A program made the position numbers and the translations under genes. Shown one piece after another: positions 3,001 through 62,201 of a stretch of 64,000 nucleotides of DNA. Below the pieces are notes generated by a model. That model was not told the origin of the DNA. It did no database searches and was given only the letters and a program-made list of their open reading frames with translations. Each line of letters opens with the position of its first letter. The first letter of the stretch is position 1. This stretch comes from a virus. The DNA lies in the IMG/VR virus record IMGVR_UViG_3300021256_000098. One strand, 5' to 3'.

Positions 3001-3018
3001 ATCAAAACCTGCGAGGAG

Positions 3019-5788: not shown

Positions 5789-5841
5789 ATAAACAGTATG
5801 GATATACAATCTTTTAATCGTTCTGAAAGGAGTGTTTAATC

Positions 5842-6539: not shown

Positions 6540-6582
6540 ACGGCAATTCTTTTAGCGAAATTTTAACACTAAGGAGATAGAT

Positions 6583-7188
6583 ATGGGTAAACTAACAATT
6601 GATGACTTTGTAAAAGCAATTAAACTCTGCATGTCGACTAAAGTAGAGGGTTGTAGTGGATGCCCCGCTGTGTATGTAGAGGATGATTGTCTGCAAATCA
6701 ATGAGATTGTTGCACCGATCGTAACTGCAAGAGTACGCGCGAAACGTCTTGAACGTGACCTTAAAGTGGCAAAAGCAGAAATTACTTTATTAAAAGGTGC
6801 AATGAAAACAATGACTGACCAGCCCGAAAAGGACACCCGGAAAACAAGTTCTACTCCCCGCAACCAGAATGAAGAAGATTTAGAACGCTGGCACCTGATT
6901 GGTGCAAAAGCTCTTAACGATTTGTTATGTTTGCACATGATTGTCGAATATGGAGCACCATTAACCGGTTGTGTTATCAGCGAGTTAGAAAATAGCATGG
7001 ATGTTTGTTTTGGCGTTTTAGCGAAAGTAGCTACTGCGTGTGAGTATCCTACTATTGGTGAATTTATGATTCGGGCTGCATTGATCTTAGATAAAAGATC
7101 GGCAGACCCCAGTAAACGAAAATATATTAACGAAACTTTAGTTGTATTGTTGATGAGAGGAGATGGATCGCATGAGTCTATTTGGTAA
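6583..7188 (+). CDS. hypothetical protein (201 aa)
   Basis: RBS aaggaga 8 nt upstream. Same strand as the operon, so preferred over the antisense ORF 6552-7214. Confidence 0.5.
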   Translation: MGKLTIDDFVKAIKLCMSTKVEGCSGCPAVYVEDDCLQINEIVAPIVTARVRAKRLERDLKVAKAEITLLKGAMKTMTDQPEKDTRKTSSTPRNQNEEDLERWHLIGAKALNDLLCLHMIVEYGAPLTGCVISELENSMDVCFGVLAKVATACEYPTIGEFMIRAALILDKRSADPSKRKYINETLVVLLMRGDGSHESIW

Positions 7189-8370: not shown

Positions 8371-8532
8371 ATGTGGTTTGTCTTTCTTGTATCTATGATT
8401 GCTATTAGTTTGGTAAGTTCACTTTTGGTTTTATTTATCAACGCGGTAGCCAATAAGATTCACAAAGATAATATCCGAGCAGAAAAAGAACTAGAAGAAT
8501 ATCGTACAAAGGAGCACTACAAAGATGAGTAA
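8371..8532 (+). CDS. 53-aa single-pass membrane micro-protein, not in the ORF track (under 60 aa); possible NfeD-like partner of the SPFH protein
   Basis: ATG at 8371 preceded by agggag. Hydrophobic N-terminal helix. Overlaps the start of the SPFH gene by 8 nt. Confidence 0.45.
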   Translation: MWFVFLVSMIAISLVSSLLVLFINAVANKIHKDNIRAEKELEEYRTKEHYKDE

Positions 8533-9397
8533 GAAACTTATTGCTGTTATTATTGTTCTAATTGGAATTATTGGTGGTGTTTACACTGTCTTATCTTTAG
8601 AACACGTTGGTCAAGGTGAAGTTGGTGTTGTATATCGCATGAAGGACGGTGTACAAGATGAGACGCTTGCGCCAGGATTTCACTTCATCTCCCCCACTAG
8701 CAAAGTAAAGACGTACCCTATTGCTCAACAGCAACTTGTATTGAGTAATAATCCCTCTGATTACAATACTGATTCTCATGCGGATTGGCATGTCGATGCA
8801 CCCGCTAATGGCGGTATGGTAAAACTCAATATGACGATCAATTATAACTTCTTACCTGACCGTGTAGTAGAACTCTATGAAAAGTTCAACGGCATGGACG
8901 GCGATCAAATCATGGATAGTATGGTACAGAATAGTGCTATCGCTTACATCAAAGAAGTTACGCCGCAATTCACCGTAATGGATATTTATAGTGATAAACG
9001 GTCTGAGGTAAGCAAAGCAATTACTCAGTATCTTGATTCTAAATTGACGGACGAGTACGGTATCAATATTTCTTCTGCTCTTATTATTGATGTACAACTT
9101 GATAAGACATTACAAGAAAAGGTACAGGCAAAAGAACAGGCTAAACAGGATGCAGAAAAAGCTGAATTGGATAAACAGACAGCTATTGCACAGGGTGAAG
9201 CAAATAAAGCAAAGGCAGAAGCGGCTGCGGCGGTTACTATTACAAATGCGCAAGCGGAAGCTAAAGCAAACCAGATTATTTCCGCTTCTATCACTGATAA
9301 GTTAATTGCAATGAAGGAAGCAGAAGCCCGGCAGAAGTTTGGTTGGATTACTGTACAAGGAGCCAATACAGTTGTTACTACAGATGAAGATCAGTAA
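8525..9397 (+). CDS. SPFH/band-7 (prohibitin/HflKC-like) membrane protein
   Basis: N-terminal TM helix, a VGVVYRM...PGFHFISP core, and a C-terminal Ala/Lys/Glu-rich coiled-coil typical of SPFH proteins. Confidence 0.7.
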   Translation: MSKKLIAVIIVLIGIIGGVYTVLSLEHVGQGEVGVVYRMKDGVQDETLAPGFHFISPTSKVKTYPIAQQQLVLSNNPSDYNTDSHADWHVDAPANGGMVKLNMTINYNFLPDRVVELYEKFNGMDGDQIMDSMVQNSAIAYIKEVTPQFTVMDIYSDKRSEVSKAITQYLDSKLTDEYGINISSALIIDVQLDKTLQEKVQAKEQAKQDAEKAELDKQTAIAQGEANKAKAEAAAAVTITNAQAEAKANQIISASITDKLIAMKEAEARQKFGWITVQGANTVVTTDEDQ

Positions 9398-9910: not shown

Positions 9911-12367
9911 ATGCTGTTTCGTCAAATTAGAATGATTACCGGTGATTGCGGCAAACGCAACGATTATATTATCTTTGTTAATTGTAAAGGTGGCAAAGCT
10001 CACCGTGACGCATTATCTGATTTAGTACGAGAAGGATTTTGGATTGGTGATACACATTACGTAACCAGCGAACGGTCAGCATCTATGGTACGCACCTCTA
10101 TACTTTCTTTTGTAGATGAAAGTATTAGTGAAGAATTACGCCGTCGTGTCACGATGGATATACATTTAGAAACAACGGTTCTTTCTAAGTGGTATGCGTA
10201 TCGCGGATTGATGTTAAGCTCGTGTCATTGTTTAGAGGGTTGGACGCCGCGTATTATTATCGTACCAGACTTATATCGTGTTATTGCAAATCAGACGATT
10301 AAGTATGTTTATGATAAACACATGACCTATGAAAAGGACGGTAAAGTATTACCGTGGGTGCAAAAAGATATTGCGACCGGTGTACGAGACATCGAGATCA
10401 ATGCTGCGGATGGGTGTGGAATACATCATCCTGATATTACCGATCAAGTTCGTGGCATGTTGGACGCTAAGTCCGACCCTACTTCAATCTTGTGGCGTGC
10501 GCCTTTTATCAAAGGCGTAACCCACGAGATGGATTACATTTCATTTTTTCAAGAACGCGGGGTAACTGAAATAGTAGATATTTGGGGAGTACGTCACGAC
10601 GTCTCCCCTTCTTCCCTACCTGCTATTATTATGTGTGAATCAATGTATAAAGGTTTCAAATATTTCAAACGCAATGGAGATGTGTCAGATTGGGAACATT
10701 ATTGGGAAGTGTTTCATAAATACAATCATTGCATCGGAGTTGCGAAATGGAATTTTTCTTTAGATGAAGAACCTTTGTATACTCGCGGCAACTATCAGAT
10801 ATTGCAAGACTTAGATTTACCTTATGAGGATTTTGCTACGCTGGCGCGATATTCGATAAGTTGGGTGTCACGCATTCTTACCGGCGATCCCGTTTATCTG
10901 TATAGTTTTCTCGGATTATTTGCCGACCAACATAAGAGCTTTGATTTGCGCATGGAAGCGTTAGTTAAGAATCGTATGATGATTCATGAAGCTGGTGTAC
11001 GTCAGTACATTATATCATTGATTTCTAAAACGATTGATGATATGAAGTGTGGTAAATTATATTTGAAAGCCTGTTTTAAATTTGAAGCTCCTGACCTTAT
11101 TATGTTAATGGAACATATCGGCGGTTTGCCTTTGCATGGTTGTTTAGAATCAGATGAGTTTTTCTCGTTTAACAAACAAGGTAAGTTCAACGGTTATTAT
11201 TTGGTGGAACGCAACCCCCATATTTGTCGATCTGAGCATTGCAAATTAAAAGCGGTTAATAATGAATTAACTGACAAGTATTGTTCCCACCTGGTGAATG
11301 TAGCTATGTTAAATAGTAAATCAATTACTGCCCAGCGATTAAACGGTAGTGACTTTGACGGCGATTTAGTATTAGTAATTGATGAACCCATGATGATGGC
11401 AGGCGTAGACCCCGACGTTCCAATTACGATTGATGTTGAAGATAAAGTTACTGCTTTAGAAGAAGCTGACACGCCTGAGAATCAGGTGAAAGTTGCATTA
11501 CGTGGCATGAATTCGTTAATCGGTGAGACAAGTAATTGTGCTACGGCATACATCAATAAAACGCCGAAGACCATTGAAGCTAAATTGCGCTATGACTCTT
11601 ATATAAACTTACTGAGTGTTATCAATGGTAAAGCAATTGATTCGGCTAAGACCGGTGTAGTGTATAATATTCCTAGATATATTGCTAAGTATGGGCGACC
11701 TCTCCCCTACTTCATGAAATATGCTTCACCATATTATGCCAGCATGAAAGACTTATCTAAGTCACTTAGTAACATGAATCGTCTTTGCATGGAAATTGAA
11801 TCGTGGCAGCGGTCTATCCGGTGGAATAAACCGTTTTCTAAATTTTCTGCTACGGGAACAATGCAAAACTTTGAGTATCATATTGACACAGAGGATAATA
11901 TGAATCAGCCCGCAGAGTCACAGCATTTTGATTATAAAATCATGATCGACGATACAATCCCCGTCGATAAAAATAAACTCGAACAGATTCGGGCTATCTT
12001 TCTACAGTACAATCAAGAAAGTAGTGCTTTAACAAAAGAGTTTCGCGCAGGGTTATTAAAGGCTACAAATAAAAAGAGCCGATCTGAAAGCTATGTAATA
12101 GATATTGATTGGCAGACATTTTATAATTCGTACCGATTAAGATGTTTTGATATTTGTCCTAACATCTGTGAGCTTGCTAACTATGCTGTTATTATTTGTT
12201 ATGAGTATTATCCAAAAAGGTCAAAAGGTTTTTTGTGGCATATAGCTGGCGAAGGCATTATTGCTAATCTTAAACAAGTAGAAGAATATTTACCTATCAG
12301 AGATGATGCCGGTGACTACGAATATTTAGGTCGGCGGTATCGAATGGAGAAGATCATGTTTGATTAA
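9911..12367 (+). CDS. 818-aa protein with an NGSDFDGDLVLVI motif; candidate YonO-like single-subunit (two-barrel) RNA polymerase, or another Mg-dependent nucleotidyl transferase
   Basis: Long ORF. The DbDGD-type motif resembles the catalytic Asp triad of RNAP beta-prime (NADFDGD) and of YonO/cellular RdRP-like enzymes. Its size matches YonO (~840 aa), and it sits just upstream of the late packaging/structural genes. Confidence 0.45.
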   Translation: MLFRQIRMITGDCGKRNDYIIFVNCKGGKAHRDALSDLVREGFWIGDTHYVTSERSASMVRTSILSFVDESISEELRRRVTMDIHLETTVLSKWYAYRGLMLSSCHCLEGWTPRIIIVPDLYRVIANQTIKYVYDKHMTYEKDGKVLPWVQKDIATGVRDIEINAADGCGIHHPDITDQVRGMLDAKSDPTSILWRAPFIKGVTHEMDYISFFQERGVTEIVDIWGVRHDVSPSSLPAIIMCESMYKGFKYFKRNGDVSDWEHYWEVFHKYNHCIGVAKWNFSLDEEPLYTRGNYQILQDLDLPYEDFATLARYSISWVSRILTGDPVYLYSFLGLFADQHKSFDLRMEALVKNRMMIHEAGVRQYIISLISKTIDDMKCGKLYLKACFKFEAPDLIMLMEHIGGLPLHGCLESDEFFSFNKQGKFNGYYLVERNPHICRSEHCKLKAVNNELTDKYCSHLVNVAMLNSKSITAQRLNGSDFDGDLVLVIDEPMMMAGVDPDVPITIDVEDKVTALEEADTPENQVKVALRGMNSLIGETSNCATAYINKTPKTIEAKLRYDSYINLLSVINGKAIDSAKTGVVYNIPRYIAKYGRPLPYFMKYASPYYASMKDLSKSLSNMNRLCMEIESWQRSIRWNKPFSKFSATGTMQNFEYHIDTEDNMNQPAESQHFDYKIMIDDTIPVDKNKLEQIRAIFLQYNQESSALTKEFRAGLLKATNKKSRSESYVIDIDWQTFYNSYRLRCFDICPNICELANYAVIICYEYYPKRSKGFLWHIAGEGIIANLKQVEEYLPIRDDAGDYEYLGRRYRMEKIMFD

Positions 12368-13606: not shown

Positions 13607-13945
13607 GTGCTAGTGGTTAAAAAGGAATTAGTAGCAGAGATTGCTGACCGTATGAATATCGACAAAGAAACCGCAGGTTTATTCTTTCAAACATTTCAGG
13701 ATGTAGTCTATGACACGCTTAATTCTGGCGAGGATATTTTAATTGTTAATATGATGCGTATGGAGATTGTGCTACGCGATGGACGTAGCTATTATGATTT
13801 ATCTGCAAAGGCAAACGCATGGGCACCGCCTAGATATAATTTAGTAATTCGTCCTATTGGCAAATTAAAGGACTCTATTAAGAGCCAGAAGGTTTCTACT
13901 TATGAAGCAAAGAAATTGCGTAAGCACTCTCGGAGCGAAGACTAA
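13607..13945 (+). CDS. HU/IHF-family DNA-binding protein
   Basis: KKELVAEIADR...F...V..L..G..I profile of bacterial histone-like proteins. GTG start, ending on the integrase start codon. Confidence 0.55.
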   Translation: MLVVKKELVAEIADRMNIDKETAGLFFQTFQDVVYDTLNSGEDILIVNMMRMEIVLRDGRSYYDLSAKANAWAPPRYNLVIRPIGKLKDSIKSQKVSTYEAKKLRKHSRSED

Positions 13946-14907
13946 TGGGTAGAGCAAAACAAAGTAAACACATTAAGTTGTTCGATAAAGAAAAAGTTGC
14001 GAAGATTAACCCTGAGAGTAAAAGGCTATTAAGAGAATATAAAAAAGATATGGTGTTGCGTGAACTGTCTCCCGGAACAATCGAAGGTTATTTTGGTGAC
14101 TTATATCAGTGGTTGATTTTTGTATTAGAGAATCAAGAGAATAAGTCTGTTTTAGAAATAGACGAAGATGATCTGACAGATTTTTTCTATTGGTGTAAAA
14201 CCGAAGGAAACAATACACGCCGCATGAGACGTAGATATTCTAGCATTTCAGCGTTTTATAAATTTTTAAGGAAAAAGCGCAAGGTCACAGAGAACCCGAT
14301 GGAGTTTGTAGACCGACCAATTAAAGATGTCGATGTAATCACTCAGACATATTTAACAGTAGAGCAAATTGAAGAAATGAAAGAGAAATTAGCAGCGACG
14401 GGAAATCTCACACTTGAAGTGTATGCTTTATTCTCTTTGAGTACAATGGCTCGTGTCAATGCTGTGTCCAACATCAAGTGGAAACAGATTGATTTTGCGC
14501 AACGCATTGTTACGGACGTTTTAGAAAAAGAAGGAAAAATAGTAACCTTATATTTTTCTGAGGAAGTCCGGTTAAAACTTATTCGACTTCAACAGTTCCG
14601 CGAACTAAACGAGATCGACGATGGTGGTTATGTCTTTTTCAGCAGAGATAAAGATGGTCATCCTAAACCTGTATCGACTGGTACATTACATAGTTGGGCA
14701 AGGAAGATTGGTCGCATGATTGGGGTGCCTACGCTGCATCCGCATGACTTTAGGCACTCTGGTAGCCAGCAACTTAAACTTGCTGGTATGCCCTTAGAGG
14801 AAATATCGGTTTTATTAAATCATGAATCGACTGAAACTACCCGGAGACATTACCTACAAGCCGACACACAAAGTATACGAGCATCCAAAGATAAGTATGG
14901 CTTGTGA
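13945..14907 (+). CDS. int: tyrosine recombinase (phage integrase / Xer-like)
   Basis: C-terminal LHPHDFRHSGS...LNH...TTRRHY, with the catalytic R-H-R-Y pattern. Confidence 0.85.
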   Translation: MGRAKQSKHIKLFDKEKVAKINPESKRLLREYKKDMVLRELSPGTIEGYFGDLYQWLIFVLENQENKSVLEIDEDDLTDFFYWCKTEGNNTRRMRRRYSSISAFYKFLRKKRKVTENPMEFVDRPIKDVDVITQTYLTVEQIEEMKEKLAATGNLTLEVYALFSLSTMARVNAVSNIKWKQIDFAQRIVTDVLEKEGKIVTLYFSEEVRLKLIRLQQFRELNEIDDGGYVFFSRDKDGHPKPVSTGTLHSWARKIGRMIGVPTLHPHDFRHSGSQQLKLAGMPLEEISVLLNHESTETTRRHYLQADTQSIRASKDKYGL

Positions 14908-42869: not shown

Positions 42870-44030
42870 TCAGACGTGCTGAGATGATACTGTATCCGGT
42901 ACTTGACTATCCTTTGCAAGATAGTTGATTCCCATGCGATACAGATTCATTGCTCCGATACGGTCATCATTGGACGTGTAACCGCAAGATTTACAGCAGA
43001 AGATATGCTTATTTTTATCACGGTTAGACTTTTCCGTGTGACCGCAAACAGGACAGGTCTGGCTCGTATAACGAGGGTCTACGTTAATTACTAGACTCTC
43101 GTTGAGCGCAGCCTTATACTTTAACTTCTTCTCCAGGTCGTAAAACGACCAAGATACGGTAACATAACGGTCTTTGCGACGCACCTTCTCTGTGGCAGAA
43201 CGAACGCCGGACAGGTCCTCTAAGACAAAGAGCGTGTGCTTCGGGTTAGACTCAACGAGTGCCTTTGATACACAATGGTTTACATCCTGCATCCAACGGT
43301 TTTCTCGCTGACCGATAGCTTTTAGCCTTCGTCTTGCAGAAGGAGTCTGTCTTTGCTGAAGTTCCTTGCGGAGCTGTTTGTACTTAGCACGTTTTTGCTT
43401 AATATTCCTGCCGCTTACAAAGCCGGACTTATGTTTGCTGTCATAGGTTGCAACGACAAAGTTAATACCCCTGTCTACGCCGACAACATTACAAACGTCG
43501 CAATCCAAGGCTTCAAGGATATCTCTGGTAACTGGGATATGCAGAAAATACTTGCCATGCTTTTTCACAAGTTTGGCAGTGCCAAAGGAGTAGATATCGT
43601 GGTCAAAGTATTTCTCCATGCCACCAGAATAGTATGGCAGCTTCACACGACCGCTAAGTGTATTTACAGAGAACAAGTTCTGCGTAAGAGAATAGTCTCT
43701 ATTCCACACAAGGTCGTATTGAGGATTAGAAAAATCTGGCTTAATCCATTCATGTTGGTTTTCTAAGATGGTTTTGTATCTTGCAATAACCGTCTTAAAA
43801 ACAGATTGTGCCATCTGGGATTTTAAGCCATAGCGCTTACGGAGATCATAATACAATGCCTTATTAAGCGAAAACTGCTTCAGGTCATGCGTCTGGAAGA
43901 TGTAATTTGCCACAAAGTTACACGCACTGCGATAGGTGTCCATAGTAACATCCAACAGCTCACGCTGTTCGGGTGCAACTCGGACCTGAATCTTTGCAGT
44001 AGTAGTGATTTGCATCAGTAACATCTCCAT
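42870..44030 (-). CDS. tnpB: TnpB (OrfB) RuvC-like RNA-guided nuclease of an IS200/IS605 element
   Basis: GVDRG, VLEDL and C-terminal CPVCGH...CCKSCG zinc-finger motifs. 386 aa. Confidence 0.9.
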   Translation of the reverse strand: MEMLLMQITTTAKIQVRVAPEQRELLDVTMDTYRSACNFVANYIFQTHDLKQFSLNKALYYDLRKRYGLKSQMAQSVFKTVIARYKTILENQHEWIKPDFSNPQYDLVWNRDYSLTQNLFSVNTLSGRVKLPYYSGGMEKYFDHDIYSFGTAKLVKKHGKYFLHIPVTRDILEALDCDVCNVVGVDRGINFVVATYDSKHKSGFVSGRNIKQKRAKYKQLRKELQQRQTPSARRRLKAIGQRENRWMQDVNHCVSKALVESNPKHTLFVLEDLSGVRSATEKVRRKDRYVTVSWSFYDLEKKLKYKAALNESLVINVDPRYTSQTCPVCGHTEKSNRDKNKHIFCCKSCGYTSNDDRIGAMNLYRMGINYLAKDSQVPDTVSSQHV

Positions 44031-51022: not shown

Positions 51023-51057
51023 TAGTGTAATCTTATTTGTATTTTTTATTCATCGTA

Positions 51058-51080
51058 CTTCTGTGACATTATCACAGAAG
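51058..51080. promoter_or_regulatory. 23-bp palindromic motif, copy 1 (cttctgtgacattatcacagaag), in the leader of gene 51101
   Basis: 9-bp inverted arms with a 5-bp spacer. One of 6 copies in the window. Confidence 0.6.
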
Positions 51081-51100
51081 TTTGCAAAGAAAGGACTACT

Positions 51101-51628
51101 ATGATTGAAAGAAAATCAATAATTGCCTCTACCCTTGGCGTTCAAAATCATGGTGGCAGTGGTGGAGATGTAGATTTAAGTGAATACAGGAAATATGTAG
51201 ATCAAGATGTGATTGATGCGGCACTGACTGCGAAGGTGACGGCATTAGAAGATAAAGCCGAACGCTTTGTTGTACATTGTACTGCCTCTTCTATCCCGCC
51301 TTTTGGAGGAGCATTTGATATTGCTACTGATAAATCGTTCAATGATATATTATCTGCATACAACAGTAATAGAGAGGTATGCGCTATTTTGACGTCATCC
51401 GCAATGCAAGGTGTTGCATTCCTTACAGGCATTGCTCCGGATGCTGCTATATTTTACACTCTCATTACTTTAGGTTCGCAAAGCAATCTTATGTACTTAC
51501 TCGTTTGTATTAGTAACGATAAACCGTTTGGCGTATTGATGTCTGCAACATATGATGATACTGATATTTCTAATCGCGTTTCCGCACTGGAAACCGCGCT
51601 GACAGGACTAGACGAGGTGATCGGATGA
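51101..51628 (+). CDS. hypothetical (175 aa)
   Basis: ORF preceded by the palindromic motif. Confidence 0.45.
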   Translation: MIERKSIIASTLGVQNHGGSGGDVDLSEYRKYVDQDVIDAALTAKVTALEDKAERFVVHCTASSIPPFGGAFDIATDKSFNDILSAYNSNREVCAILTSSAMQGVAFLTGIAPDAAIFYTLITLGSQSNLMYLLVCISNDKPFGVLMSATYDDTDISNRVSALETALTGLDEVIG

Positions 51629-53136
51629 GTACATATGTTGAGCGTATTCAAGCGCAGATTGATAAAGCGAATACTGCAACGGGAAAAGATGATTCCACGC
51701 TGGTACAAGCCGTTCAATCGCTCGTCGACGGCTACGGTGCAGGCGGCGGCGATTCCGGGGCGGAAGATATGCTGAAAGGCTTGATCGAACGCTCTGCAAC
51801 GGAAATCACGATCCCAAACGGTGTGACGAGCATCGGGGATTATGGGTTTGCATATTATTCCGGCCTGACCAGCATCACGATCCCGAACAGCGTGACAAGC
51901 ATCGGGAGTAATGCGTTTTTTAACTGTGCAAAATTAGCTAGTATTACGATCCCGGGCAGTGTGAAAACCATCGGAACCTTCGCATTTCAAAGGTGTTCAC
52001 AACTTGCCAGCGTCACAATCCTGAACGGCGTGACGAGCATCAAGGATTATGCGTTTTACAACTGTGCAGAATTAGCTAGCATCACAATTCCGAACAGCGT
52101 GACAAGCATCGGGAGTAATGCGTTCAAGGGTATCAACGCGAACGCCGTAATCACTTGCAAATTCGCAGAAGGCGCGGTGTCAGGTGCGCCGTGGGGTGCG
52201 CCAGACACGGTTCAAATTATTTACGAACGACGTGTATATACTGTATATTTTTATAACGGTTCTACGCTGTTACAGACGGTTGAAGGAGTACAAGCAGGAG
52301 GAACGGCGACTTATACCGGGGAGACCCCGACAAGGACTGGCGTGGAGAACCCTGAGGACTATTCGTTCAGCGGATGGTCGCCGTCTAACACCAACATCCA
52401 GAGCAACACATCCTGCTATGCACAGTTCAATTATACTGGCGTGCCGGAGACCATTACGGATAGTTGGGACGACATCATCGCGGCGGTCAACAACGGGACC
52501 TATGCCAGCAAGTACAGCGTCGGAGACACCAAGCAAATCGACCTCGGCACGGAGGGTATCGTGGCTATGCAGATTGCGGCCATCGACACCGACGCGCTCG
52601 CCAGCGGCAGCGGAACGGCGGCCATCACATGGATTTCGCAGCAGCTTATCGCTACGAGCCATCGCATGAACCCGGCCAGAGCCGCAGACCCGGAGGATTC
52701 CTCCAAGTATCAGGAGGGTACGGGAACCATCGGCGGCTGGGAAAAGACGGAGATGCGGAGCTGGCTGAAAGAAACGGTCAAGCCGCTTATCCCGGCGAAC
52801 GTATTGGCAGCCATCAAGCCCGTAACGAAGTACAGCAGGATTTACGACACTTCCGGCAGCGCGGTGAACAACGTCACCAGCACGGAGGATGTATGGATTC
52901 CGTCGGCCAGAGAGGTCGGCTTCACCGGGTACGAGACAGAGGGACCGACCTACACCGGGCTGTTTACGGCCAATGCAGACCGTATCAAGAGCAAGACAGG
53001 CGCGTCCAGCGCCTTGTGGTGGCGGCTGCGGTCCGCTTCCGGAAGCGATACCTTCGGTAATGTGCATTCGGCCGGCTCCTATATCAGTTACAGCGCGTAC
53101 TACTCTGGCGCGGTGGTTCTCGGCTTCTGCATATAA
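51625..53136 (+). CDS. BspA-type leucine-rich-repeat protein with a Listeria-Bacteroides-type repeat and a GC-rich C-terminal domain (WWRLRS-containing)
   Basis: At least 4 LRR_5-like repeats (ITIPNSVTSIGSNAF...), YTVYFYNGS...GETPTR repeat. GC rises to ~60% in the last ~900 bp. Confidence 0.65.
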   Translation: MSTYVERIQAQIDKANTATGKDDSTLVQAVQSLVDGYGAGGGDSGAEDMLKGLIERSATEITIPNGVTSIGDYGFAYYSGLTSITIPNSVTSIGSNAFFNCAKLASITIPGSVKTIGTFAFQRCSQLASVTILNGVTSIKDYAFYNCAELASITIPNSVTSIGSNAFKGINANAVITCKFAEGAVSGAPWGAPDTVQIIYERRVYTVYFYNGSTLLQTVEGVQAGGTATYTGETPTRTGVENPEDYSFSGWSPSNTNIQSNTSCYAQFNYTGVPETITDSWDDIIAAVNNGTYASKYSVGDTKQIDLGTEGIVAMQIAAIDTDALASGSGTAAITWISQQLIATSHRMNPARAADPEDSSKYQEGTGTIGGWEKTEMRSWLKETVKPLIPANVLAAIKPVTKYSRIYDTSGSAVNNVTSTEDVWIPSAREVGFTGYETEGPTYTGLFTANADRIKSKTGASSALWWRLRSASGSDTFGNVHSAGSYISYSAYYSGAVVLGFCI

Positions 53137-53189
53137 TCCGCAAACCCCTAATCTGGCTCCCTTTGTGGGGCCAGATAGGATTTGTCGGC

Positions 53190-53225
<36 letters not shown>

Positions 53226-53254
53226 ATAAAACATAATTTAAGGAGGATATTATC

Positions 53255-53578
53255 ATGAAATTGCAATTGATTCTTAAAGATAGAACAGTCATTGACATCG
53301 CGGAGGCTGGGTACACGAAGCATTTTGTCGTTACCTGCGCGGATGCGGATGCGTTCAAAGAAATCTGGGACAAGATGACGGACGAGAATCTGTCTGAGGT
53401 TCAGATCGCAGAAGATGGGAACACGATTCATACGATTGCCGGGATGACGCTGAACGGAACTCAGACGGTTAGCAATTCGGACGGCACGCTTACCGGACAT
53501 TTGTACATGGACGGCGGCGAGTATGTGGGGGATGAATACTCCGACGCTGGGCGAATTTTGCTTGGGGAGGAGGAATAA
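53255..53578 (+). CDS. hypothetical (107 aa), relatively GC-rich
   Basis: RBS aggagg. Confidence 0.4.
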   Translation: MKLQLILKDRTVIDIAEAGYTKHFVVTCADADAFKEIWDKMTDENLSEVQIAEDGNTIHTIAGMTLNGTQTVSNSDGTLTGHLYMDGGEYVGDEYSDAGRILLGEEE

Positions 53579-53581
53579 ACC

Positions 53582-53998
53582 ATGAGCGAAATCATTGAGA
53601 GAGCGCGACAGTTGAGAGTAAAAATCGAGGAGTTGGCAACAAATCACATTGAAGATGGTGTCGCAGCGGATTTCAAAGAACTTTTTCCCGCGTGGGACGG
53701 TAACGGAAAGGCATATACGGCTGGTGATCGTGTACGCTTCGCAGGAATCATATACAAAGTATTACAAGATCATACATCTCAATCTAACTGGACGCCTGAT
53801 GCTACCCCCTCTTTATTTACAGAAGTTCTTATCCCCGATCCGTCTGTAATTCCCGAATGGAAACAACCCGATAGCACCAATCCGTATATGAAAGGCGATG
53901 TTGTTTCGCATAATGGATTTACATGGGAATCGTTAATTGATAACAACGTATGGGAGCCGACAGAATCTTTATCTACTTTATGGAAAAAGATTTCGTGA
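53582..53998 (+). CDS. protein with two CBM5/12 (chitin-binding type 3)-like domains
   Basis: AWDGNGKAYTAGDRV...W.P and EWK...YMKGDVV...W.P patterns. Confidence 0.45.
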   Translation: MSEIIERARQLRVKIEELATNHIEDGVAADFKELFPAWDGNGKAYTAGDRVRFAGIIYKVLQDHTSQSNWTPDATPSLFTEVLIPDPSVIPEWKQPDSTNPYMKGDVVSHNGFTWESLIDNNVWEPTESLSTLWKKIS

Positions 53999-54009
53999 CG
54001 TTAATTCAA

Positions 54010-54032
54010 CTTCTGCGATATTGTCACAGAAG
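54010..54032. promoter_or_regulatory. 23-bp palindromic motif, copy 2 (cttctgcgatattgtcacagaag), in the leader of the endolysin gene
   Basis: Same motif family. Confidence 0.55.
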
Positions 54033-54056
54033 TTTCATTGGAGGTGATAAAACCAC

Positions 54057-54971: not shown

Positions 54972-55030
54972 ATTTTAATAGGGGTACTCTTTATGGGTAT
55001 CCCTATTTTTAGCACTTATATGCTCCGCGA

Positions 55031-55141
55031 CTTCTGCGACATTATCACAGAAGTTGAAAATAGCAAAAGAAAAACCTCTGCGACATTATCACAGAGGTTA
55101 GAGGAATGGGAGGTGCTACTTCTGCGACATTATCACAGAAG
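55031..55141. promoter_or_regulatory. cluster of three copies of the 23-bp palindromic motif (55031-55053, 55075-55097, 55119-55141) between the convergent endolysin and rep genes
   Basis: Copy 2 carries compensatory changes (cCtc...gaGg) that preserve the symmetry. Confidence 0.6.
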
Positions 55142-56695
55142 TTATAAGATATACTTTAGGTTTGTTAGGCACCATTCTAAAGTCATGTGACTTACAAATG
55201 GATCAAAATTATTGTTGCTATGTTTAATATCAGAATTTATAATAGTGGTAGCATACGCATACGCATTAAATGTTAATGTGTCTTTATCGTTCATATACAG
55301 ATACGATTTCCAAAGCGCATTTAGAATAACTCGAATGTCAACATCATTGCGATAACATTCCAATATTTTTCTGTAGAATGAATAATCAATCCCGTTAAAT
55401 TTACAAGTATTTTCTGCAAAGTTCCGTATTGAAATAATATAAGTTTCTAATTCACTAACTTCCGACGTAGTTGACACAAATGGTTCATTGGATAAAACAA
55501 GTCTTTTATAATTGGCTCTTGCGGCGTCATCGCTACCAAACGACTTATATTCGATCTCACTTACCCTATCGTAATCAAATAGCTGTTGGTTAGCGTCGGT
55601 AAGAGGTAATGTTCCCGTCGCATATATATCCATCATCTTTCTTGCGTATGCCTCAACTGACTTTTCGATCATTCCAGCTTGATCTTTTTGCGCTGTATCT
55701 TCTATGGCCTGTCTAACCATACCTACTCGCACAAATTGGTCGTAGCACTCTCCGATCTTCTTCGTCAGTTTCTTACCAACCGTTCGATGCACTGTGTCTG
55801 CATAATATTGTGTCAACTCGTAAATATATTTATCTCGTGTTTTTGTAGATGTTACAATCTGTTCATTGTCGTTTTTGTTTTGACTTTCTTTCATTCTAAC
55901 AAACAATTCAAATGAATACATCCCGTTACGCTTAATAGGTGTACACTGAATAGCAAGCTCTGTCTGTGCGCTTACAGTATTTGCAGACTCTTTAATCAGT
56001 CTAACAAAGTCTCGGTCTTGTTTATATTTGTTACCTTGCCCTATGAATGTTCGTAATTCTTCTAGTGTACAAACAAACGGTTTACCTTCTTTATTGTTCT
56101 GTTGGATCAAACTAAAATACGAAATGCAATACTCATACAGTCTTATTGTTACAGGATTTGGCAGACTTAGAATGTTTTCGATCTCATAGGTTGTGTAATA
56201 ATCTTTTAATTGCACAATGTATGGAATTAAATCAGGGTTCAACTTCAATATCAAACCACCTGTTTGTGGCGTAAATTCCGAAGTAGTAACCCAATTGATT
56301 CGTTTAATTACATCTCTACCATATTCGTCCTGCTCTGTTAATTCTGTTTGGATTCGTGTCATTTCACGAATTACATCGGGCAGTTTATAGTAGATTCGTT
56401 TTGACATACCGATGTATTTTGCAAAATCTAAAACATTGCAGTGGTAAGTCAGACACGCATCATTTACATCGTTGACTGAAGAAATAATTTGTCTGATTAG
56501 TTTGATCTGTAATGTTGTCATTGGTTTCGGGGGAGGAGAGTTTTTTGTTCCATCGTCTGGCATAATCATCCCCGGAGCGCGGATCAATTTATTTTTAATG
56601 GTAACGCGACCATTTTTATCAAGCAATAATTTCTTATCCATATTCCCATCCTCCTTGCAGTGATTATATATCAAGTGTTTAACTTTGTCAATCAA
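55142..56695 (-). CDS. rep: Rep_3-family plasmid replication initiator (RepA/RepB, WH1-WH2)
   Basis: W...F....L.PY...LK.Y.T.Y....LSL....T.RLYEY... profile. Iteron array immediately upstream. Confidence 0.75.
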   Translation of the reverse strand: MIDKVKHLIYNHCKEDGNMDKKLLLDKNGRVTIKNKLIRAPGMIMPDDGTKNSPPPKPMTTLQIKLIRQIISSVNDVNDACLTYHCNVLDFAKYIGMSKRIYYKLPDVIREMTRIQTELTEQDEYGRDVIKRINWVTTSEFTPQTGGLILKLNPDLIPYIVQLKDYYTTYEIENILSLPNPVTIRLYEYCISYFSLIQQNNKEGKPFVCTLEELRTFIGQGNKYKQDRDFVRLIKESANTVSAQTELAIQCTPIKRNGMYSFELFVRMKESQNKNDNEQIVTSTKTRDKYIYELTQYYADTVHRTVGKKLTKKIGECYDQFVRVGMVRQAIEDTAQKDQAGMIEKSVEAYARKMMDIYATGTLPLTDANQQLFDYDRVSEIEYKSFGSDDAARANYKRLVLSNEPFVSTTSEVSELETYIISIRNFAENTCKFNGIDYSFYRKILECYRNDVDIRVILNALWKSYLYMNDKDTLTFNAYAYATTIINSDIKHSNNNFDPFVSHMTLEWCLTNLKYIL

Positions 56696-56953
56696 AACAA
56701 AAAAATTTTTTGTTGAGGTATCAAGGCTTGTCTATAGATTATTAGAAATATGTATGTTACCCAACATGGTTATCAACAGTTTTTCAACAGCATTATACAC
56801 ATGCCATCAAACTCAGAACCATTATATGCCGGACTTATCAACAGGTTTTTACACAACAAAATAGTTATTAACAATGTTATGCACAGACTTATACACAAAA
56901 TTAAAAAATCAGTTACATTTCGTCGCGGATAGAATGCTTCTGCAAAAAATCGA

Positions 56954-57100
56954 GTTACAATTTCTCGCGAATCGGTTACAATCTCTCGCGAATTGGTTAC
57001 AATTCCTCGCGTTTACTAGTTACAATTTCTCGCGGTCGAGTTACAATCTCTCGCGAATCAGTTACAATTTCTCGCGAATCGGTTACAATCTCTCGCGCCC
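56954..57100. repeat. iterons: 7 direct repeats of 21-23 bp (gttacaatYtctcgcgaatcg)
   Basis: Units at 56954, 56975, 56996, 57019, 57040, 57061 and 57082, followed by an AT-rich DUE-like region at 57100-57400. Confidence 0.85.
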
Positions 57101-57413
57101 TACATTATAAGAAAAAGAATAAGAATTATTTTTGAAAATTTTTTGTGCGAAATTAGAAAAAGAACGTGTAAAAAATTTTTAGAATTTTTTTATTCAATCA
57201 AGCGACGCAGTCTCCCGCAACAGTTACGATGTGTCATATTAAAACTCAAAACCAGTTCTATAAACCGGCATTTTCAAAAGTCTCTTTTGTGAACGGTGGT
57301 TTATAATTCATTTTCACCTGTTTTTAATTTTAAGCATTCGCGTGAATATTTTTGAATAAAAGTCTTTACAAATGATTCACTTTGATGTATACTGACGATA
57401 GTGAGGTGAGACT

Positions 57414-57560
57414 ATGAAGACTATTACAGTTCGCATTGATGATGAGTTGCATGAACAACTCGTCGCATGTGCAGCCAAAGAACATCGTTCCATTAGTAAT
57501 CTGATTAAAACTATCATCTTAGATTACATGGATAGGGAGGGGCAGAAGAATGAAGGCTAA
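57414..57560 (+). CDS. ribbon-helix-helix (CopG/Arc-like) protein, 48 aa, not in the ORF track; likely par operon regulator
   Basis: ITVRIDDELHEQLVACAAKEHRSISNLIKTII is a classic RHH. Overlaps the parA start. Confidence 0.55.
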   Translation: MKTITVRIDDELHEQLVACAAKEHRSISNLIKTIILDYMDREGQKNEG

Positions 57561-58311
57561 GATCATTGCTTTTGCAAACCAAAAAGGAGGAGTTGCCAAG
57601 ACAACATCTTCCGTGATGACCGCAGGGAAGTTGTCAGACATGGGATATAAAACCTTATTGGTTGACGCTGATCCGCAGGGAAGTGCTACAAGATACGTTT
57701 ATAAAGATTTTGATGAAACAACTAATGACTTGTATGATGTATTGACAAGTGCATGTGAGGTATCACAGGGAATCATTCATGATACAGACTTTGGCGATCT
57801 GATTGCAGCATCAAACAAGTTGTACGACCCTGCGCCCGTAGATAATGACCCTTACATCATCCAGAGAGTATTAGATAGCGTCAGCGATCAATACGATTAT
57901 ATAATTATTGATACGCCGCCAAACCTGGGTATGATGTTGATTGCTGTATTGTTAGCAGCGGATAGTGTTGTTATTCCCACAAAAGCAACGAAAGAATCAG
58001 TGCAAGGCGTTGACGATTTATTCAGCACGATTCAGGAATACACCGAGTACAATTCACGACTAAAGGTAGCCGGATTTTTAATAGTAATGTCGAACGCGCG
58101 TGTTCGCGCAGTTAAAAAGATCACTGAGGAATTACAGGCTTATGCTGATAGTATCGGATGCAAAGTATTTGAACATCGTATCCGTACAGCGGAAGGATTG
58201 TTTGGCGAAGCAGAGATATTCAGCGACAACATTTTCCAGAAATTTGCGCGGCATTCAGCCACAAAAGATTATTGTGGCTTTGTTAATGAATTATTGGAGG
58301 AGATGTCATGA
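57550..58311 (+). CDS. parA: ParA/Soj-family partition ATPase
   Basis: Deviant Walker A KGGVAKTT. 253 aa. Confidence 0.8.
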   Translation: MKAKIIAFANQKGGVAKTTSSVMTAGKLSDMGYKTLLVDADPQGSATRYVYKDFDETTNDLYDVLTSACEVSQGIIHDTDFGDLIAASNKLYDPAPVDNDPYIIQRVLDSVSDQYDYIIIDTPPNLGMMLIAVLLAADSVVIPTKATKESVQGVDDLFSTIQEYTEYNSRLKVAGFLIVMSNARVRAVKKITEELQAYADSIGCKVFEHRIRTAEGLFGEAEIFSDNIFQKFARHSATKDYCGFVNELLEEMS

Positions 58312-59336
58312 GTAGTAGACATAGAGATTTTAGTCAGGCTGCTCCTGTATTTAGAAACAACCCTTCATTCAAAGATAAGGTTGCTATGGCAACATCTAAA
58401 AAACAGGTGCCAGAGTCCGGCGAGGTGGCACGCATGATCCCGTTAGATGATATTGTCTTTTATCATAGAGAAACCTCCTTGAGTGACGGGGGAGAGCAGG
58501 TTGTATTTAAGGATTATGATTCTGCTAAACTCAACTATTTAGCTGACGATATTGAAACAAATGGATTATTAGAACCCATTACAGTGTTCCTGAATGAGAA
58601 TGGGAAATATGAGTGTTTAGCGGGAAAGCATCGGACAAAGGCTTCTCGTTTAGTTGCAGCCAAACATCCTGAACGTAATCAGATCATGGCAATTGTATTG
58701 CCATTAGAAAAAGTATCTGCCAATGAGTGGGCTTATGGTGACTTGGTATATGTGAATAGCAATATGTATCGCCGCAACTCGTTGTCTTTATCGGAATTAG
58801 GTATGGTATACGAAATGATGTTCCGAGCACAATCACATCAAGGGGTTAGAGGATCAAACCCAAACCAAGATATTGCAGATCGAATGCAGGACACTGTATC
58901 TCGCGTGAGGCAGTTACGAAATATTATTCCGGAGAAGATTATAACACAGTTTTTAGAGATGATAGATAAGAAATATATTGCTCTCACTACAGCCGCAGCC
59001 GAACTGTGCTATATAGACAAAGTACACCAAACATCTCTTTATCAGTGGGGAATGAGAACATATCAAGACGCTCCGACACAAGTTGAGCGGCGACTTGGGA
59101 GAACAATGACAAGAGAACATTTATCTGCACTGCGACAACTTATTGCTGAAAAGGGAGAGGAGTGTTCTTTAGCTGACGAGGATTTTGATAGTATTTTTCT
59201 TACTATACCGGTTAAAACATTTCAGTCTCCGAGAAAAAAGTTTTTACAACAACTCGTTCCGGCAGAAGCGTGGGAGAACGTAGAAGAATATTTGCGGATT
59301 GCTGTTGAAGAATATCAAAAAAATCACCAACAATAA
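58308..59336 (+). CDS. parB: ParB-N (ParB/Srx-fold) domain partition protein
   Basis: GLLEPITV...LAGKHRTKA motif. ATGA coupling to parA. Confidence 0.65.
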   Translation: MSSRHRDFSQAAPVFRNNPSFKDKVAMATSKKQVPESGEVARMIPLDDIVFYHRETSLSDGGEQVVFKDYDSAKLNYLADDIETNGLLEPITVFLNENGKYECLAGKHRTKASRLVAAKHPERNQIMAIVLPLEKVSANEWAYGDLVYVNSNMYRRNSLSLSELGMVYEMMFRAQSHQGVRGSNPNQDIADRMQDTVSRVRQLRNIIPEKIITQFLEMIDKKYIALTTAAAELCYIDKVHQTSLYQWGMRTYQDAPTQVERRLGRTMTREHLSALRQLIAEKGEECSLADEDFDSIFLTIPVKTFQSPRKKFLQQLVPAEAWENVEEYLRIAVEEYQKNHQQ

Positions 59337-59340
59337 TTTT

Positions 59341-59370
59341 AGAGCGAGGATAACCCCTCGCTCTATTTTG
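59341..59370 (+). terminator. intrinsic terminator (agagcgagg...cctcgctct + T-run)
   Basis: 9-bp stem followed by attttg. Confidence 0.6.
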
Positions 59371-59371
59371 C

Positions 59372-59400
59372 TTGACAAGTACATATATATATGTTATTAT
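59372..59400 (+). promoter_or_regulatory. sigma-A promoter TTGACA, 17 bp, TATTAT
   Basis: Spacing checked base by base. Confidence 0.6.
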
Positions 59401-59456
59401 AAAAGAGGATTTAACTAATACAAAATAAGCCTAACAAAAGTTTTTAACTAGCAACA

Positions 59457-59479
59457 CTTTTGCGACATTATCACAGAGG
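59457..59479. promoter_or_regulatory. palindromic motif, copy 6 (cttttgcgacattatcacagagg), overlapping the RBS of gene 59488
   Basis: Core tgcgacattatcacag conserved. Confidence 0.5.
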
Positions 59480-59487
59480 AGGTATAT

Positions 59488-59676
59488 ATGAAGAATCCGT
59501 ATCTGAATAAAATGGAAGTCGTTCAGAACTATAATATTCGTGCAGCCGTTGCAACTATGCGTGATGGCTACATCAACGAATATGTAGTAAAAGAATGGGC
59601 AAGAAAACATCATATCAACCCCAGCATCGCGTGGAGTTATGCCCAATATCGAGATAGAAAAAGACGCACAGCGTAA
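59488..59676 (+). CDS. hypothetical (62 aa)
   Basis: RBS ggagg. Confidence 0.4.
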   Translation: MKNPYLNKMEVVQNYNIRAAVATMRDGYINEYVVKEWARKHHINPSIAWSYAQYRDRKRRTA

Positions 59677-59913: not shown

Positions 59914-60171
59914 ATGGAACGAGAAACAATCATCAATTTTGAAGAAAGCCAAGAGTGGGCTATAATTTACACTCATAACCGCTTACTTTTAAGAACACTG
60001 CAAAAGTTATTAAAAGAATATCCAGAGGATGTATTTTACATTAACAAACACGCAGACGGAGCGCAGACATTCCAAATTCATAAAGAGTGGATTGATATTC
60101 GTCCAGCATCTATATCGCCATTCCAACGGAAAAGAGTAAACGTAAAGGTGAGGAGGAATTTACATGAGTGA
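59914..60171 (+). CDS. hypothetical (85 aa)
   Basis: ORF, ATGA-coupled to the next gene. Confidence 0.4.
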   Translation: MERETIINFEESQEWAIIYTHNRLLLRTLQKLLKEYPEDVFYINKHADGAQTFQIHKEWIDIRPASISPFQRKRVNVKVRRNLHE

Positions 60172-61141
60172 AACTGTACACGGATATAAAGTTTTCAATC
60201 CTGATTGGACTTGCAGGGGATTCCGGTATGAAGTTGGAAAAACTTTTTCTGATCTCAAGAAACCAAAAATCTGCAAATGTGGTTTCCACTTCTGCAAAAA
60301 ACCTGCTGATTGTTTCAAATACTACGATTTTGATCCTGATAACAAGATTGCAGAAGTTGAAGCAACCGGAGAAATTGACACAGATGGAATAAAGACCTGC
60401 ACTAACAGGATCAAAATCTTGCGTGAAGTCAGTTGGGAAGAAGTCCTAAATTTGGTCAATACTGGAAAAAGTTGCACAGGACTCTGCAACAGCGGAAATT
60501 GGAACAGCGGAAATTGGAACAGCGGAAATTGGAACAGCGGAAATTGGAACAGCGGAAGCCGAAACAGCGGAAATTGGAACAGCGGAAGCCGAAACAGCGG
60601 AAGTCGGAACAGCGGAGACTGCAACAGCGGAAATTGGAACAGCGGAAGTCGGAACAGCGGACACTGGAACAGTGGAAACCTGAACAGCGGAAATTGGAAC
60701 AGCGGAAGCCGAAACAGCGGAAGTCGGAACAGCGGAGACTGCAACAGCGGAAATTGGAACAGCGGAAATTGGAACAGCGGAGACTGGAATAATACTTCAT
60801 TTAGTTCAGGTTGTTTCAATACACAAGAAGCAAAAATCCTCATGTTCAACAAACCTTCTGATTGGACTTTCCAAGATTGGCGCAATTCAGATGCAAGACG
60901 GCTTCTTGAACAGATCGAGAAGGATGTGGTTGGATGGATTAACTTTTATGACATGACGGATGAAGAAAAGAAGAATCATCCTGAAGCAGAAACAACAGGT
61001 GGCTATCTGAAGGTTCTGGATGAATCTGAAAATGCACAAATTTGGTGGGATGATCTCACAGAATACAACAGAAATATCATCAAAGCGTTGCCGAATTTTG
61101 ACAAGGAAATCTTTGAACAGATCGTTGGGGTGAAGATATGA
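60164..61141 (+). CDS. Cys-rich protein containing 20 tandem pentapeptide repeats (NSGNW/NSGSR/NSGDC)
   Basis: 325 aa. Internal 15-bp tandem repeats. Confidence 0.55.
   Translation: MSETVHGYKVFNPDWTCRGFRYEVGKTFSDLKKPKICKCGFHFCKKPADCFKYYDFDPDNKIAEVEATGEIDTDGIKTCTNRIKILREVSWEEVLNLVNTGKSCTGLCNSGNWNSGNWNSGNWNSGNWNSGSRNSGNWNSGSRNSGSRNSGDCNSGNWNSGSRNSGHWNSGNLNSGNWNSGSRNSGSRNSGDCNSGNWNSGNWNSGDWNNTSFSSGCFNTQEAKILMFNKPSDWTFQDWRNSDARRLLEQIEKDVVGWINFYDMTDEEKKNHPEAETTGGYLKVLDESENAQIWWDDLTEYNRNIIKALPNFDKEIFEQIVGVKI
60488..60787. repeat. 15-bp tandem repeat x20 (aacagcggaaattgg and variants), in-frame within the CDS
   Basis: Read directly from the sequence. Confidence 0.9.
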
Positions 61142-61637: not shown

Positions 61638-62201
61638 ATGAATGTAGCTTATGTGAGAGTATCGACTGTCGAGCAGAACGAACAGCGGCAGATTGAAGCA
61701 CTTAAAAAGCACGATATAGACAAGTGGTACATTGAAAAGGTATCTGGGAAAGACACAAACAGACAGGAACTTAAAAAAATGCTAGACTATGTGCGTGAAG
61801 GCGATACAGTATACATACATGATTTTTCGCGGCTTGCTAGAAGCACTAAGGATCTTCTTGATATAGTAGAACAGTTAGATGCTAAAGGCGTGCATTTGGT
61901 CAGTAACAAAGAAAATATCGACAACAGCACGCCAACAGGGAAACTAATGCTAACGATGATCGGTGCTATCACCGAGTTTGAAAGGCAGAATTTGTTGGAA
62001 CGACAGAGAGAAGGAATAGCAATAGCAAAGAGAGAAGGCAAGTTTAAGGGCGGTCAGGCTAAAAAAATAGACGAAAATCAATTTGCTAAGGCTTATGAAA
62101 AATACAATTCGCGGCAGATCACCAAAAAGGCAATGGCAGCGGAACTCAAGATAAGCAGACCGACGCTGGACAAACTTCTGAAAGACAAAGGGCTAAAATA
62201 A
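61638..62201 (+). CDS. small serine recombinase (resolvase/invertase family)
   Basis: YVRVSTVEQ catalytic Ser region, SRLARS, C-terminal HTH. 187 aa. Confidence 0.8.
   Translation: MNVAYVRVSTVEQNEQRQIEALKKHDIDKWYIEKVSGKDTNRQELKKMLDYVREGDTVYIHDFSRLARSTKDLLDIVEQLDAKGVHLVSNKENIDNSTPTGKLMLTMIGAITEFERQNLLERQREGIAIAKREGKFKGGQAKKIDENQFAKAYEKYNSRQITKKAMAAELKISRPTLDKLLKDKGLK

Follow-up and report, generated by a model that had tools for sequence, protein, structure and literature searches.

A Rep_3 and ParA-ParB cassette in a large sheep-rumen phage suggests maintenance as a plasmid prophage

In Enterobacteria the large tailed temperate phages P1, P7 and D6 are kept as low-copy circular plasmids, and P1 and D6 carry an iteron initiator with DnaA boxes, ParA-ParB-parS, a dimer-resolving recombinase and separate lytic replication functions. 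Here we describe a cassette that has these elements, or candidates for them, at 55.0-59.5 kb of a 64,000-nucleotide stretch of viral DNA (IMG/VR record IMGVR_UViG_3300021256_000098; "the window" below means this whole stretch) and that belongs to a phage for which we infer a comparable plasmid state. An earlier note made from the letters of the window alone (the original prediction) had called it a probable phage-plasmid. Sequence evidence, as far as it reaches, supports this: the cassette is complete and conserved, it is integral to the phage, and the phage maps as a circle with no host genes in the ~92 kb inspected. The cassette is best explained as a self-contained plasmid-maintenance module, and the phage is probably kept as a low-copy circular plasmid prophage, either alone or in alternation with integration.

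The D6 initiator is the sole match to the window's Rep protein from a complete phage genome in the phage collection, at 25% identity. P1 is a myovirus whereas the window phage is an SPbeta-type siphovirus with a Gram-positive-type host, and their virions are unrelated. In further contrast to P1, the window Rep has a predicted DnaD-like C-terminus, its ParA is without the N-terminal helix-turn-helix (HTH) of type Ia ParA proteins and is preceded by a separate RHH gene, where P1 has a single parS after parB the candidate centromere comprises an array downstream of rep and further copies dispersed elsewhere, and the window has no incA-like second iteron array. The palindromic centromere sites of N15 are scattered over its genome, late regions included, and in this resemble the dispersed copies in the window; the N15 Sop system reportedly influences late gene expression. 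In contrast to the circular map and Rep_3-type initiator of the window phage, the N15 genome is linear and encodes a protelomerase and a RepA primase-helicase.

The closest virion relatives are the Tyroviruses (Tsamsa/Thrax), Brevibacillus phage Sundance and SPbeta-like large siphoviruses, with which the phage shares YonB/YonD/YonG-type genes; its portal is 33-41% identical to those of Sundance, the Tyroviruses and the Lactococcus 949 group. Sundance encodes a ParA, just 33% identical to the window ParA, and a XerD-like gene. The Tyroviruses encode ParM and an RHH protein together with three Xer-like recombinases and a replication initiator; their authors put forward both a plasmid prophage and an integrated stage. 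SPbeta itself integrates by a serine recombinase. Partition in the Tyroviruses involves ParM where the window phage has ParA/ParB, and no Rep_3 protein or iteron origin is reported for the Tyroviruses, Sundance or the SPbeta-like phages. The screen of Pfeifer et al. (2021) took phages with plasmid replication or partition genes as putative phage-plasmids and found these frequent in Bacillus and Clostridia; in the present phage, virion, packaging and lysis genes lie on the same replicon as plasmid replication and partition genes.

Initiator and origin of the cassette

All parts that the original prediction had listed for the cassette were confirmed, in or close to the places it gave, namely a Rep_3 initiator on the minus strand, seven iterons, an AT-rich region beside them, and an RHH-ParA-ParB operon with its own promoter and terminator (Table 1). 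The rep promoter and a cluster of DnaA boxes are additions to that list, and the start of rep was moved. Inspection of the sequence places a AAGGAGGA ribosome-binding site 8 nt ahead of ATG 56641, and Rep is therefore most likely a protein of 499 aa, not 517; a Rep of exactly 499 aa is also called in public assemblies.

Rep belongs to Rep_3 by sequence and by fold. The Pfam Rep3_N model matches it at 65.3 bits (cutoff 22.4), while the Rep3_C model has no sequence match in it, and phmmer against the PDB returns RepE (1rep, 2z9o), RepA (1hkq) and also Pi chains. Ordinary plasmid Rep_3 proteins align only with residues ~5-350, at 24-30% identity, and the C-terminal 150-200 residues retrieve nothing credible in Pfam, even at E = 10. 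An exhaustive HMMER search with residues 270-499 against 1.84 billion representatives found four distant relatives and a near-identical copy. These four were missed by word-indexed protein searches, which returned just near-identical Rep and ParB proteins and ordinary Rep_3 proteins, and no relatives of Rep were found in IMG/VR, in 185,579 GTDB species genomes or in the JGI metagenome contigs searched.

An AlphaFold2 model of Rep, for which the alignment consisted of the four distant relatives and ordinary Rep_3 proteins, has a mean pLDDT of 82 and resolves into WH1 (~43-147), WH2 (~154-250) and an all-helical part (254-499). Rep thus has the two tandem winged-helix domains of Rep_3 iteron initiators, and the predicted fold of its C-terminal region is a helical DnaD C-terminal type (DDBH2-like). 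We read the protein as a Rep_3 core (~aa 43-250) fused to one or two DnaD-like domains (aa 254-499). DnaD-type domains function in helicase loading at Gram-positive origins, and the corresponding region of Rep may recruit the helicase-loading machinery to the melted origin. This region points to a Firmicutes-type host, consistent with the SPP1-type holin and with the virion relatives. Compared with F RepE, R6K Pi, pPS10 RepA and the initiators of Gram-positive Rep_3 plasmids, the window Rep is longer by this DnaD-like helical extension of ~150-200 aa, which is shared by just four other proteins among the 1.84 billion representatives.

The three features of a Rep_3 origin, direct repeats next to rep, an AT-rich element and DnaA boxes, are all present. 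The iteron core GTTACAATNTCTCGCG occurs seven times in the window against 0.15 expected, always inside 56954-57097, and two degenerate iteron copies lie at 56905-56926 and 57211-57235. When the whole window was scanned for TTATCCACA with at most one mismatch, 6 of the 17 DnaA-box-like sites fell in the 264 bp of 56634-56897 (Poisson P ~1.6e-10). Three short-read contigs (L002-L004) end within the iteron array. Scans of the window for tRNAs and Rfam families were empty, leaving no tRNA-type att site and no regulatory RNA evident.

Two of the four distant Rep relatives lie on contigs L033 (7.4 kb) and L034 (4.6 kb), and the order of elements there is that of the window: a divergent operon of small open reading frame(s), ParA and ParB, then a T/C-rich tract, iterons, DnaA boxes, promoter, a long rep and a palindrome array. 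Between L034 and the window ParA is 51% and ParB 42% identical. Both contigs have 7-8 iterons of 21-22 bp whose sequence is particular to each locus, and in rep orientation the iterons are visibly related (window GAGAAATTGTAAC, L034 GAGAAAAAGTGAC). In both, a TTCTTTTTCTTATA-type T-rich tract stands ahead of the first iteron, two perfect TTATCCACA boxes occupy the equivalent position in the layout, and a consensus rep promoter is found at the equivalent place. That this layout is kept although the C-terminal regions of the three Rep proteins are only 32-40% identical is the strongest sequence-level argument for a working origin as opposed to a relic. In L033 the cassette is followed, at 3222-6721, by an AAA_15/AAA_21 ATPase gene and then a reverse-transcriptase gene (defence-like), with a palindrome copy between.

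Partition genes and the 25-bp palindromes

PHROGs and NCBIfam concur with Pfam on the gene families of the cassette. The RHH protein probably autoregulates the par operon, and the inverted repeat upstream of the par promoter is its possible operator. ParA is a typical small ParA: its Walker A motif reads NQKGGVAKTT in full, fitting the type I pattern KGGxxK[ST], and the NCBIfam ParA_partition model scores 108.7 bits, under the equivalog cutoff of 180. ParB is a marginal, atypical ParB_N protein, for which a search of IMG/VR found no relatives. Where its AGKHRTKAS is aligned with AGERRLRAS of the Helicobacter pylori Spo0J structure 4umk, just the G, one R and the A are kept; the L034 homologue conserves the motif as well.

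A 25-bp imperfect palindrome, ACTTCTGCGAcattaTCACAGAAGT, gave seven matches over both strands at six sites in the window in a repeat scan, against 0 expected. Three sites form an array between the lysin terminator and the rep stop codon, and the copies at 51057 and 54009 fall within the lysis/host-recognition region. The copy at 59456 is 100% kept in a variant whose ParB is 93% identical (L032), amid an otherwise variable spacer. Arrays of three and five 25-bp palindromes stand directly downstream of rep in L033 and L034, so that all three family loci have such an array beside the cassette. Between the three loci the outer arms ACTTCT...AGAAGT are identical and the inner arms differ while remaining palindromic (ACTTCT-N13-AGAAGT). 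In the window copy at 55074 and the L034 copies at 4234 and 4318, the changes relative to neighbouring copies are symmetric and compensatory across the two arms; it thus seems that palindromy itself is maintained, which would be unexplained if half-site recognition by a protein were all that mattered.

Scanning IMG/VR with the pattern ACTTCTGYG-N7-CRCAGAAGT matched 15 contigs. In four of these the full palindrome lies inside parB at the same codon position, with parA adjacent or near (in L046 just the last ~46 ParA residues are within the stretch examined), and the four ParB proteins are 52-72% identical among themselves. Six or seven of the 15 matches are the coding sequence of one phage family and are uninformative. 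A negative-control pattern of the outer arms only produced 16 matches, none of them a full palindrome and none near parAB. A parS inside parB is the classical arrangement, as in the first parS described, that of Bacillus subtilis spo0J. On this pattern of occurrence, the palindromes are likely to be the parS sites of this ParB family. A role as rep terminators or RNA hairpins was considered and rejected, because rep has its own separate canonical terminator in L033 and L034; moreover most copies are without a T-run, and several are palindromic through the centre with a 1-nt loop.

The palindromes might, rather than being parS, serve a tyrosine-recombinase-like repressor as operators, the relation that SPBRE has to MrpR in SPbeta, or be pdif-like Xer sites that delimit exchangeable modules; we regard both roles as doubtful. 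Nine-bp inverted arms around a 7-bp spacer do have the shape of a tyrosine-recombinase core site, but tandem direct recombination sites would delete each other. In favour of these roles, variant L037 has lost the 54009 copy along with a gene cassette that is exchanged there, a defence-like gene lies between copies in L033, and Acinetobacter Rep_3 plasmids carry dif modules; the site lies within parB in four of the seven full-palindrome loci, however, and there cannot be a module boundary. The dispersed copies are also placed just upstream of genes, and SPbeta offers a precedent: its master repressor MrpR, which has a recombinase fold, binds a repeated element, and an MrpR-type protein is encoded in one variant of the present phage. 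The symmetric compensatory changes, too, suggest selection on palindromy as such. Against either role, ParA and ParB are the sole gene set common to all seven loci, and no recombinase gene was seen in L033 or L034, which are short contigs.

The cassette in its phage

The phage functions encoded in the window include a portal (phrog_2739, 4.4e-122), terminase-like and tape-measure proteins, an SPP1-type holin and SPbeta-type YonB, YonD and YonG; the lysin-like gene is without a family match in the profile search. The virion, lysis, integrase and IHF-like genes on which the original prediction relied are present, with the "integrase" now recognised as an Xer-like tyrosine recombinase and the DNA-binding gene as HU-type, both of them 40 kb from the cassette. 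A role of this recombinase in dimer resolution would fit its Xer-like best matches. The cassette itself is positioned between the lysin/lysis genes and early or methylase genes, and replication genes occur elsewhere on the phage (a sliding clamp and a helicase-like protein). No relatives of the portal were found in the 185,579 GTDB species genomes. The source is best explained as a ~109-kb siphophage related to SPbeta and Sundance, with a Firmicutes-type host, from the sheep rumen.

The exact Rep protein occurs on sheep-rumen assemblies, including scaffold_335 (108,841 bp). The left edge of the window is not the edge of the element, as scaffold_1013 runs on leftwards with small early-type genes, an SprT-like gene and a sliding-clamp gene, a variant of which is found on scaffold_335 at 10,402-11,550. 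Positions 402-1,580 of scaffold_335 correspond to window 1192-14 at 100%, and its other end falls at ~window 1494 by coordinates. Both ends therefore lie in or beside one 44-bp tandem array, window 1395-1543, indicating that the sequence closes on itself at ~108.7 kb, with the end overlap deduced from the coordinates. On the choice between a circular episome and chromosomal flanks, which the original prediction had left to the assembly context, we thus obtain a circular map with no host genes in the ~92 kb inspected of the 108.8-kb circle.

Window 1-132 and 1395-1543 are two different GC-rich 44-bp tandem arrays around a gene for 297 aa (277-1170, minus strand, 52% GC). Every short-read contig breaks at these arrays, scaffolds have Ns there, and two sequence variants follow the first array. 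The rest of the circle (L054 19110-20078, L056 11851-12367 and L036 17525-18214) encodes a 322-aa serine recombinase with a match to integrase family phrog_95, a 229-aa small serine recombinase/resolvase and, in one variant, a protein of the MrpR_N_CB type, similar to SPbeta's master repressor with its recombinase fold. It also encodes ThyX, an AcrVA2-like protein and RadC-like genes.

Table 1. Features of the rep/par cassette, palindrome sites and recombination-related genes of the window.
Feature	Position	Strand	Remarks
HU-type gene	13607-13945		directly before the tyrosine recombinase gene
Xer-like tyrosine recombinase gene	13945-14907	plus	R..HxxR..H..Y retained; profile matches; candidate for dimer resolution or integration
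Dispersed palindrome	51057-51081		20 nt upstream of gene 51101
Dispersed palindrome	54009-54033		24 nt upstream of lysin-like gene; missing in strain variant L037
Palindrome array	55030-55142		three copies at 55030, 55074 and 55118; 44-bp phasing; abuts rep stop codon; candidate parS
rep, open frame	55142-56695	minus	517 aa (open reading frame map, 53-64 kb)
rep, likely start ATG 56641	55142-56641	minus	499-aa initiator; Rep_3 WH1+WH2 core and predicted DnaD-like C-terminus
rep promoter	56663-56691	minus	TTGACA-17-TATAAT; 12/12 sigma-70 match
DnaA-box-like 9-mers	56770-56897		five: TTATCAACA twice, TTATACACA twice, TTATGCACA; a sixth at 56634
Iterons	56948-57097		seven, 21-23 bp, consensus AATCGGTTACAATTTCTCGCG; Tandem Repeats Finder 7.0 copies, period 21
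AT-rich, T/C-rich tract	57098-57210		23.9% GC; probable DNA-unwinding element
Imperfect inverted repeat	57259-57305		upstream of par promoter; 22-nt arms, 77% complementary
par promoter	57365-57393	plus	TTTACA-17-TATACT; promoter search
RHH protein gene	57414-57560	plus	48 aa; Pfam RHH_1 23.9 bits (cutoff 20.5); PHROG Arc-like repressor
parA	57550-58311	plus	253 aa; deviant Walker A (KGGVAKTT), no N-terminal HTH; AAA_31 6.9e-43; phrog_164 ParA-like
parB	58308-59336	plus	342 aa; N-terminal ParB domain (ParB_N), putative HTH ~aa 185-210; matches H. pylori Spo0J 4umk
par operon intrinsic terminator	59340-59365	plus	terminator search
Degenerate palindrome	59456-59480		downstream of parB; overlaps ribosome-binding site of next gene
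Small serine recombinase gene	61638-62201	plus	187 aa, resolvase/invertase type; candidate multimer resolvase

Several other parts of the window were noted. A non-coding region of 1.8 kb, window 1200-3018, is very AT-rich (28% GC at 2001-3000) and dense in short repeats; situated upstream of the helicase-like gene (3019-4590), it may function in regulation or as a second (lytic) origin. Beside the helicase-like gene, 4942-5385 (plus) encodes a 147-aa SocA_Panacea (antitoxin-type) protein; a Band_7 protein is encoded at 8525-9397, and an 818-aa protein at 9911-12367 (plus) with the Pfam domain RdRP PF05183 (63 bits) looks like a YonO-type single-subunit RNA polymerase, as in SPbeta. A TnpB/Cas12f-like gene (OrfB_IS605 + TNB; 42870-44030, minus) stands on the opposite strand between tail genes and is probably an IS605-family insertion in the phage. 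Genes for 503, 107 and 138 aa (LRR_5/DUF6273, CBM_5_12; 55% GC) at 51625-53998 are replaced in L037 (373-2418) by genes for 294 and 382 aa, a difference that includes the 54009 palindrome; this is probably a strain-variable cassette for host recognition. A homopolymer of ~27 T at 53196-53221 separates the 503-aa LRR_5/DUF6273 gene from the next. At 60164-61141 (plus) a 325-aa protein has ~20 NSGNW pentapeptide repeats, encoded by a 15-bp tandem array (60488-60789); the repeat copy number varies between assemblies, and scaffolds are gapped there.

Plasmid prophage and the alternatives

In the scheme that we propose, Rep would be made from its strong promoter and bind the seven iterons via its two winged-helix domains, and host DnaA on the adjacent DnaA boxes would act with Rep to melt the neighbouring AT-rich tract. 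The DnaD-like domains would recruit the Gram-positive helicase-loading machinery, leading to theta replication, with copy number limited by iteron-bound Rep as in other iteron plasmids. ParB would load on the palindromes beside rep and on the dispersed copies, nucleoid-bound ParA-ATP would separate the plasmid copies under an operon autoregulated by the small RHH protein, and one of the phage's recombinases would resolve multimers. The case for plasmid maintenance lies in the combination of separate phage replication genes and candidate resolvases with a complete module, which comprises an iteron origin, genes for a partition ATPase and a centromere-binding protein, and a candidate centromere.

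Several points weigh against this reading. A virion genome that is terminally redundant or permuted would just as readily assemble as a circle, so the closed map is no proof of a plasmid state, and the host-gene check covered all but ~16 kb of the circle. The contig names give a coverage of 264-1332x, which could mean DNA from a lytic bloom. No host was found, with no relatives in the 185,579 species genomes, and the window holds no clear repressor, the MrpR-type candidate being encoded just in a variant and outside the window. With at least four recombinases, one of them the integrase-like serine recombinase, integration keeps a place beside the plasmid state. At 27.3 bits (cutoff 26.3), ParB_N is matched only marginally, and the arginine motif of ParB is atypical, reading GKHRTKA where GERRxRA is usual. 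Finally, some virulent Bacillus phages have partition genes too.

That Rep and ParAB come from a separate plasmid or mobile element, whether adjacent, recently inserted or misassembled, is very improbable. The cassette is modular, it is found in other contexts (L033 and L034), and the same palindrome brackets it on both sides (55030-55142 and 59456). Yet the cassette and both its flanks are 100% identical over independent assemblies and samples, and this extends to a strain whose neighbouring upstream cassette differs. Its composition is that of the phage (37% against 40% GC, GC3 of 0.33-0.40 against 0.31-0.35) and unlike that of the GC-rich, clearly foreign genes at 277-1170 and 51625-53136, and phage genes continue on both sides around the closed circle. 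These identical junctions, the phage-like composition and the phage genes on either side essentially exclude the adjacent separate plasmid that the original prediction had named among the outcomes that would count against it. A megablast search with 55000-59500 found no match in phage and plasmid collections. A further question is whether the phage lysogenises mainly by integration, with the cassette auxiliary to a short-lived episomal phase (establishment, maintenance after excision or pseudolysogeny, for example). We consider this unlikely, although the recombinases of the circle comprise the Xer-like enzyme with its catalytic residues intact, the 322-aa serine recombinase (phrog_95) and small serine enzymes of 187 and 229 aa, SPbeta relatives integrate by a serine recombinase, and mixed integration and plasmid stages have been proposed for the Tyroviruses. 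Among the dimer resolvases typical of plasmids are small serine recombinases and Xer-like enzymes, 322 aa is short for a large serine integrase, and a full replicon with partition genes and centromere would be costly if unused; none of the contigs retrieved has a junction with host flanks.

It is also conceivable, if quite unlikely, that the cassette serves lytic or carrier-state functions only, with Rep and the iterons as an early theta origin and ParAB for genome positioning, spore segregation or a carrier state, roles of the kind suspected for partition genes in certain virulent Bacillus phages. Iteron-binding initiators also start lytic replication in lambdoid phages. Partition homologues are found in SPO1-like phages described as virulent, the high contig coverage suggests active replication, and the lack of a clear repressor in the window would fit. 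The phage encodes its sliding clamp and helicase-like protein elsewhere, however, and beside these separate replication genes a second origin that is host-DnaA-dependent and promoter-autonomous looks like a maintenance replicon. The same cassette stands next to non-virion genes in L033 and L034, and the MrpR-type repressor candidate and the several recombinases point to temperance. Plasmid maintenance of the prophage thus seems to us the better account of the cassette.

Phage-plasmids are more and more regarded as major vehicles of gene flow, and those characterised so far derive almost entirely from cultured Proteobacteria, Bacillus, Clostridia or Actinobacteria. The lifestyle as such is already known; new here are lineage and habitat, along with the DnaD-fused initiator and the palindrome family that goes with it. 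If our reading is true, the SPbeta/Sundance/Tyrovirus super-group, usually taken to consist of integrating prophages, would include a rumen phage-plasmid. The Rep_3-DnaD fusion suggests a route by which an iteron initiator could join the Gram-positive helicase-loading pathway. As a tentative idea to which we give little weight, the cassette may be an undescribed portable module that unites a Rep_3 protein with its own DnaD-like domains, a divergent RHH-ParA-ParB operon and a family-specific parS, ACTTCT-N13-AGAAGT, and in which ParB at the extra copies, just ahead of lysis and host-recognition genes, couples partition to the silencing or timing of late genes in the prophage. The cassette is compact, with a delimited origin, initiator, partition genes and candidate centromere in 4.5 kb, and if functional it could be put to use as a replicon in those anaerobic Firmicutes that are poorly tractable.

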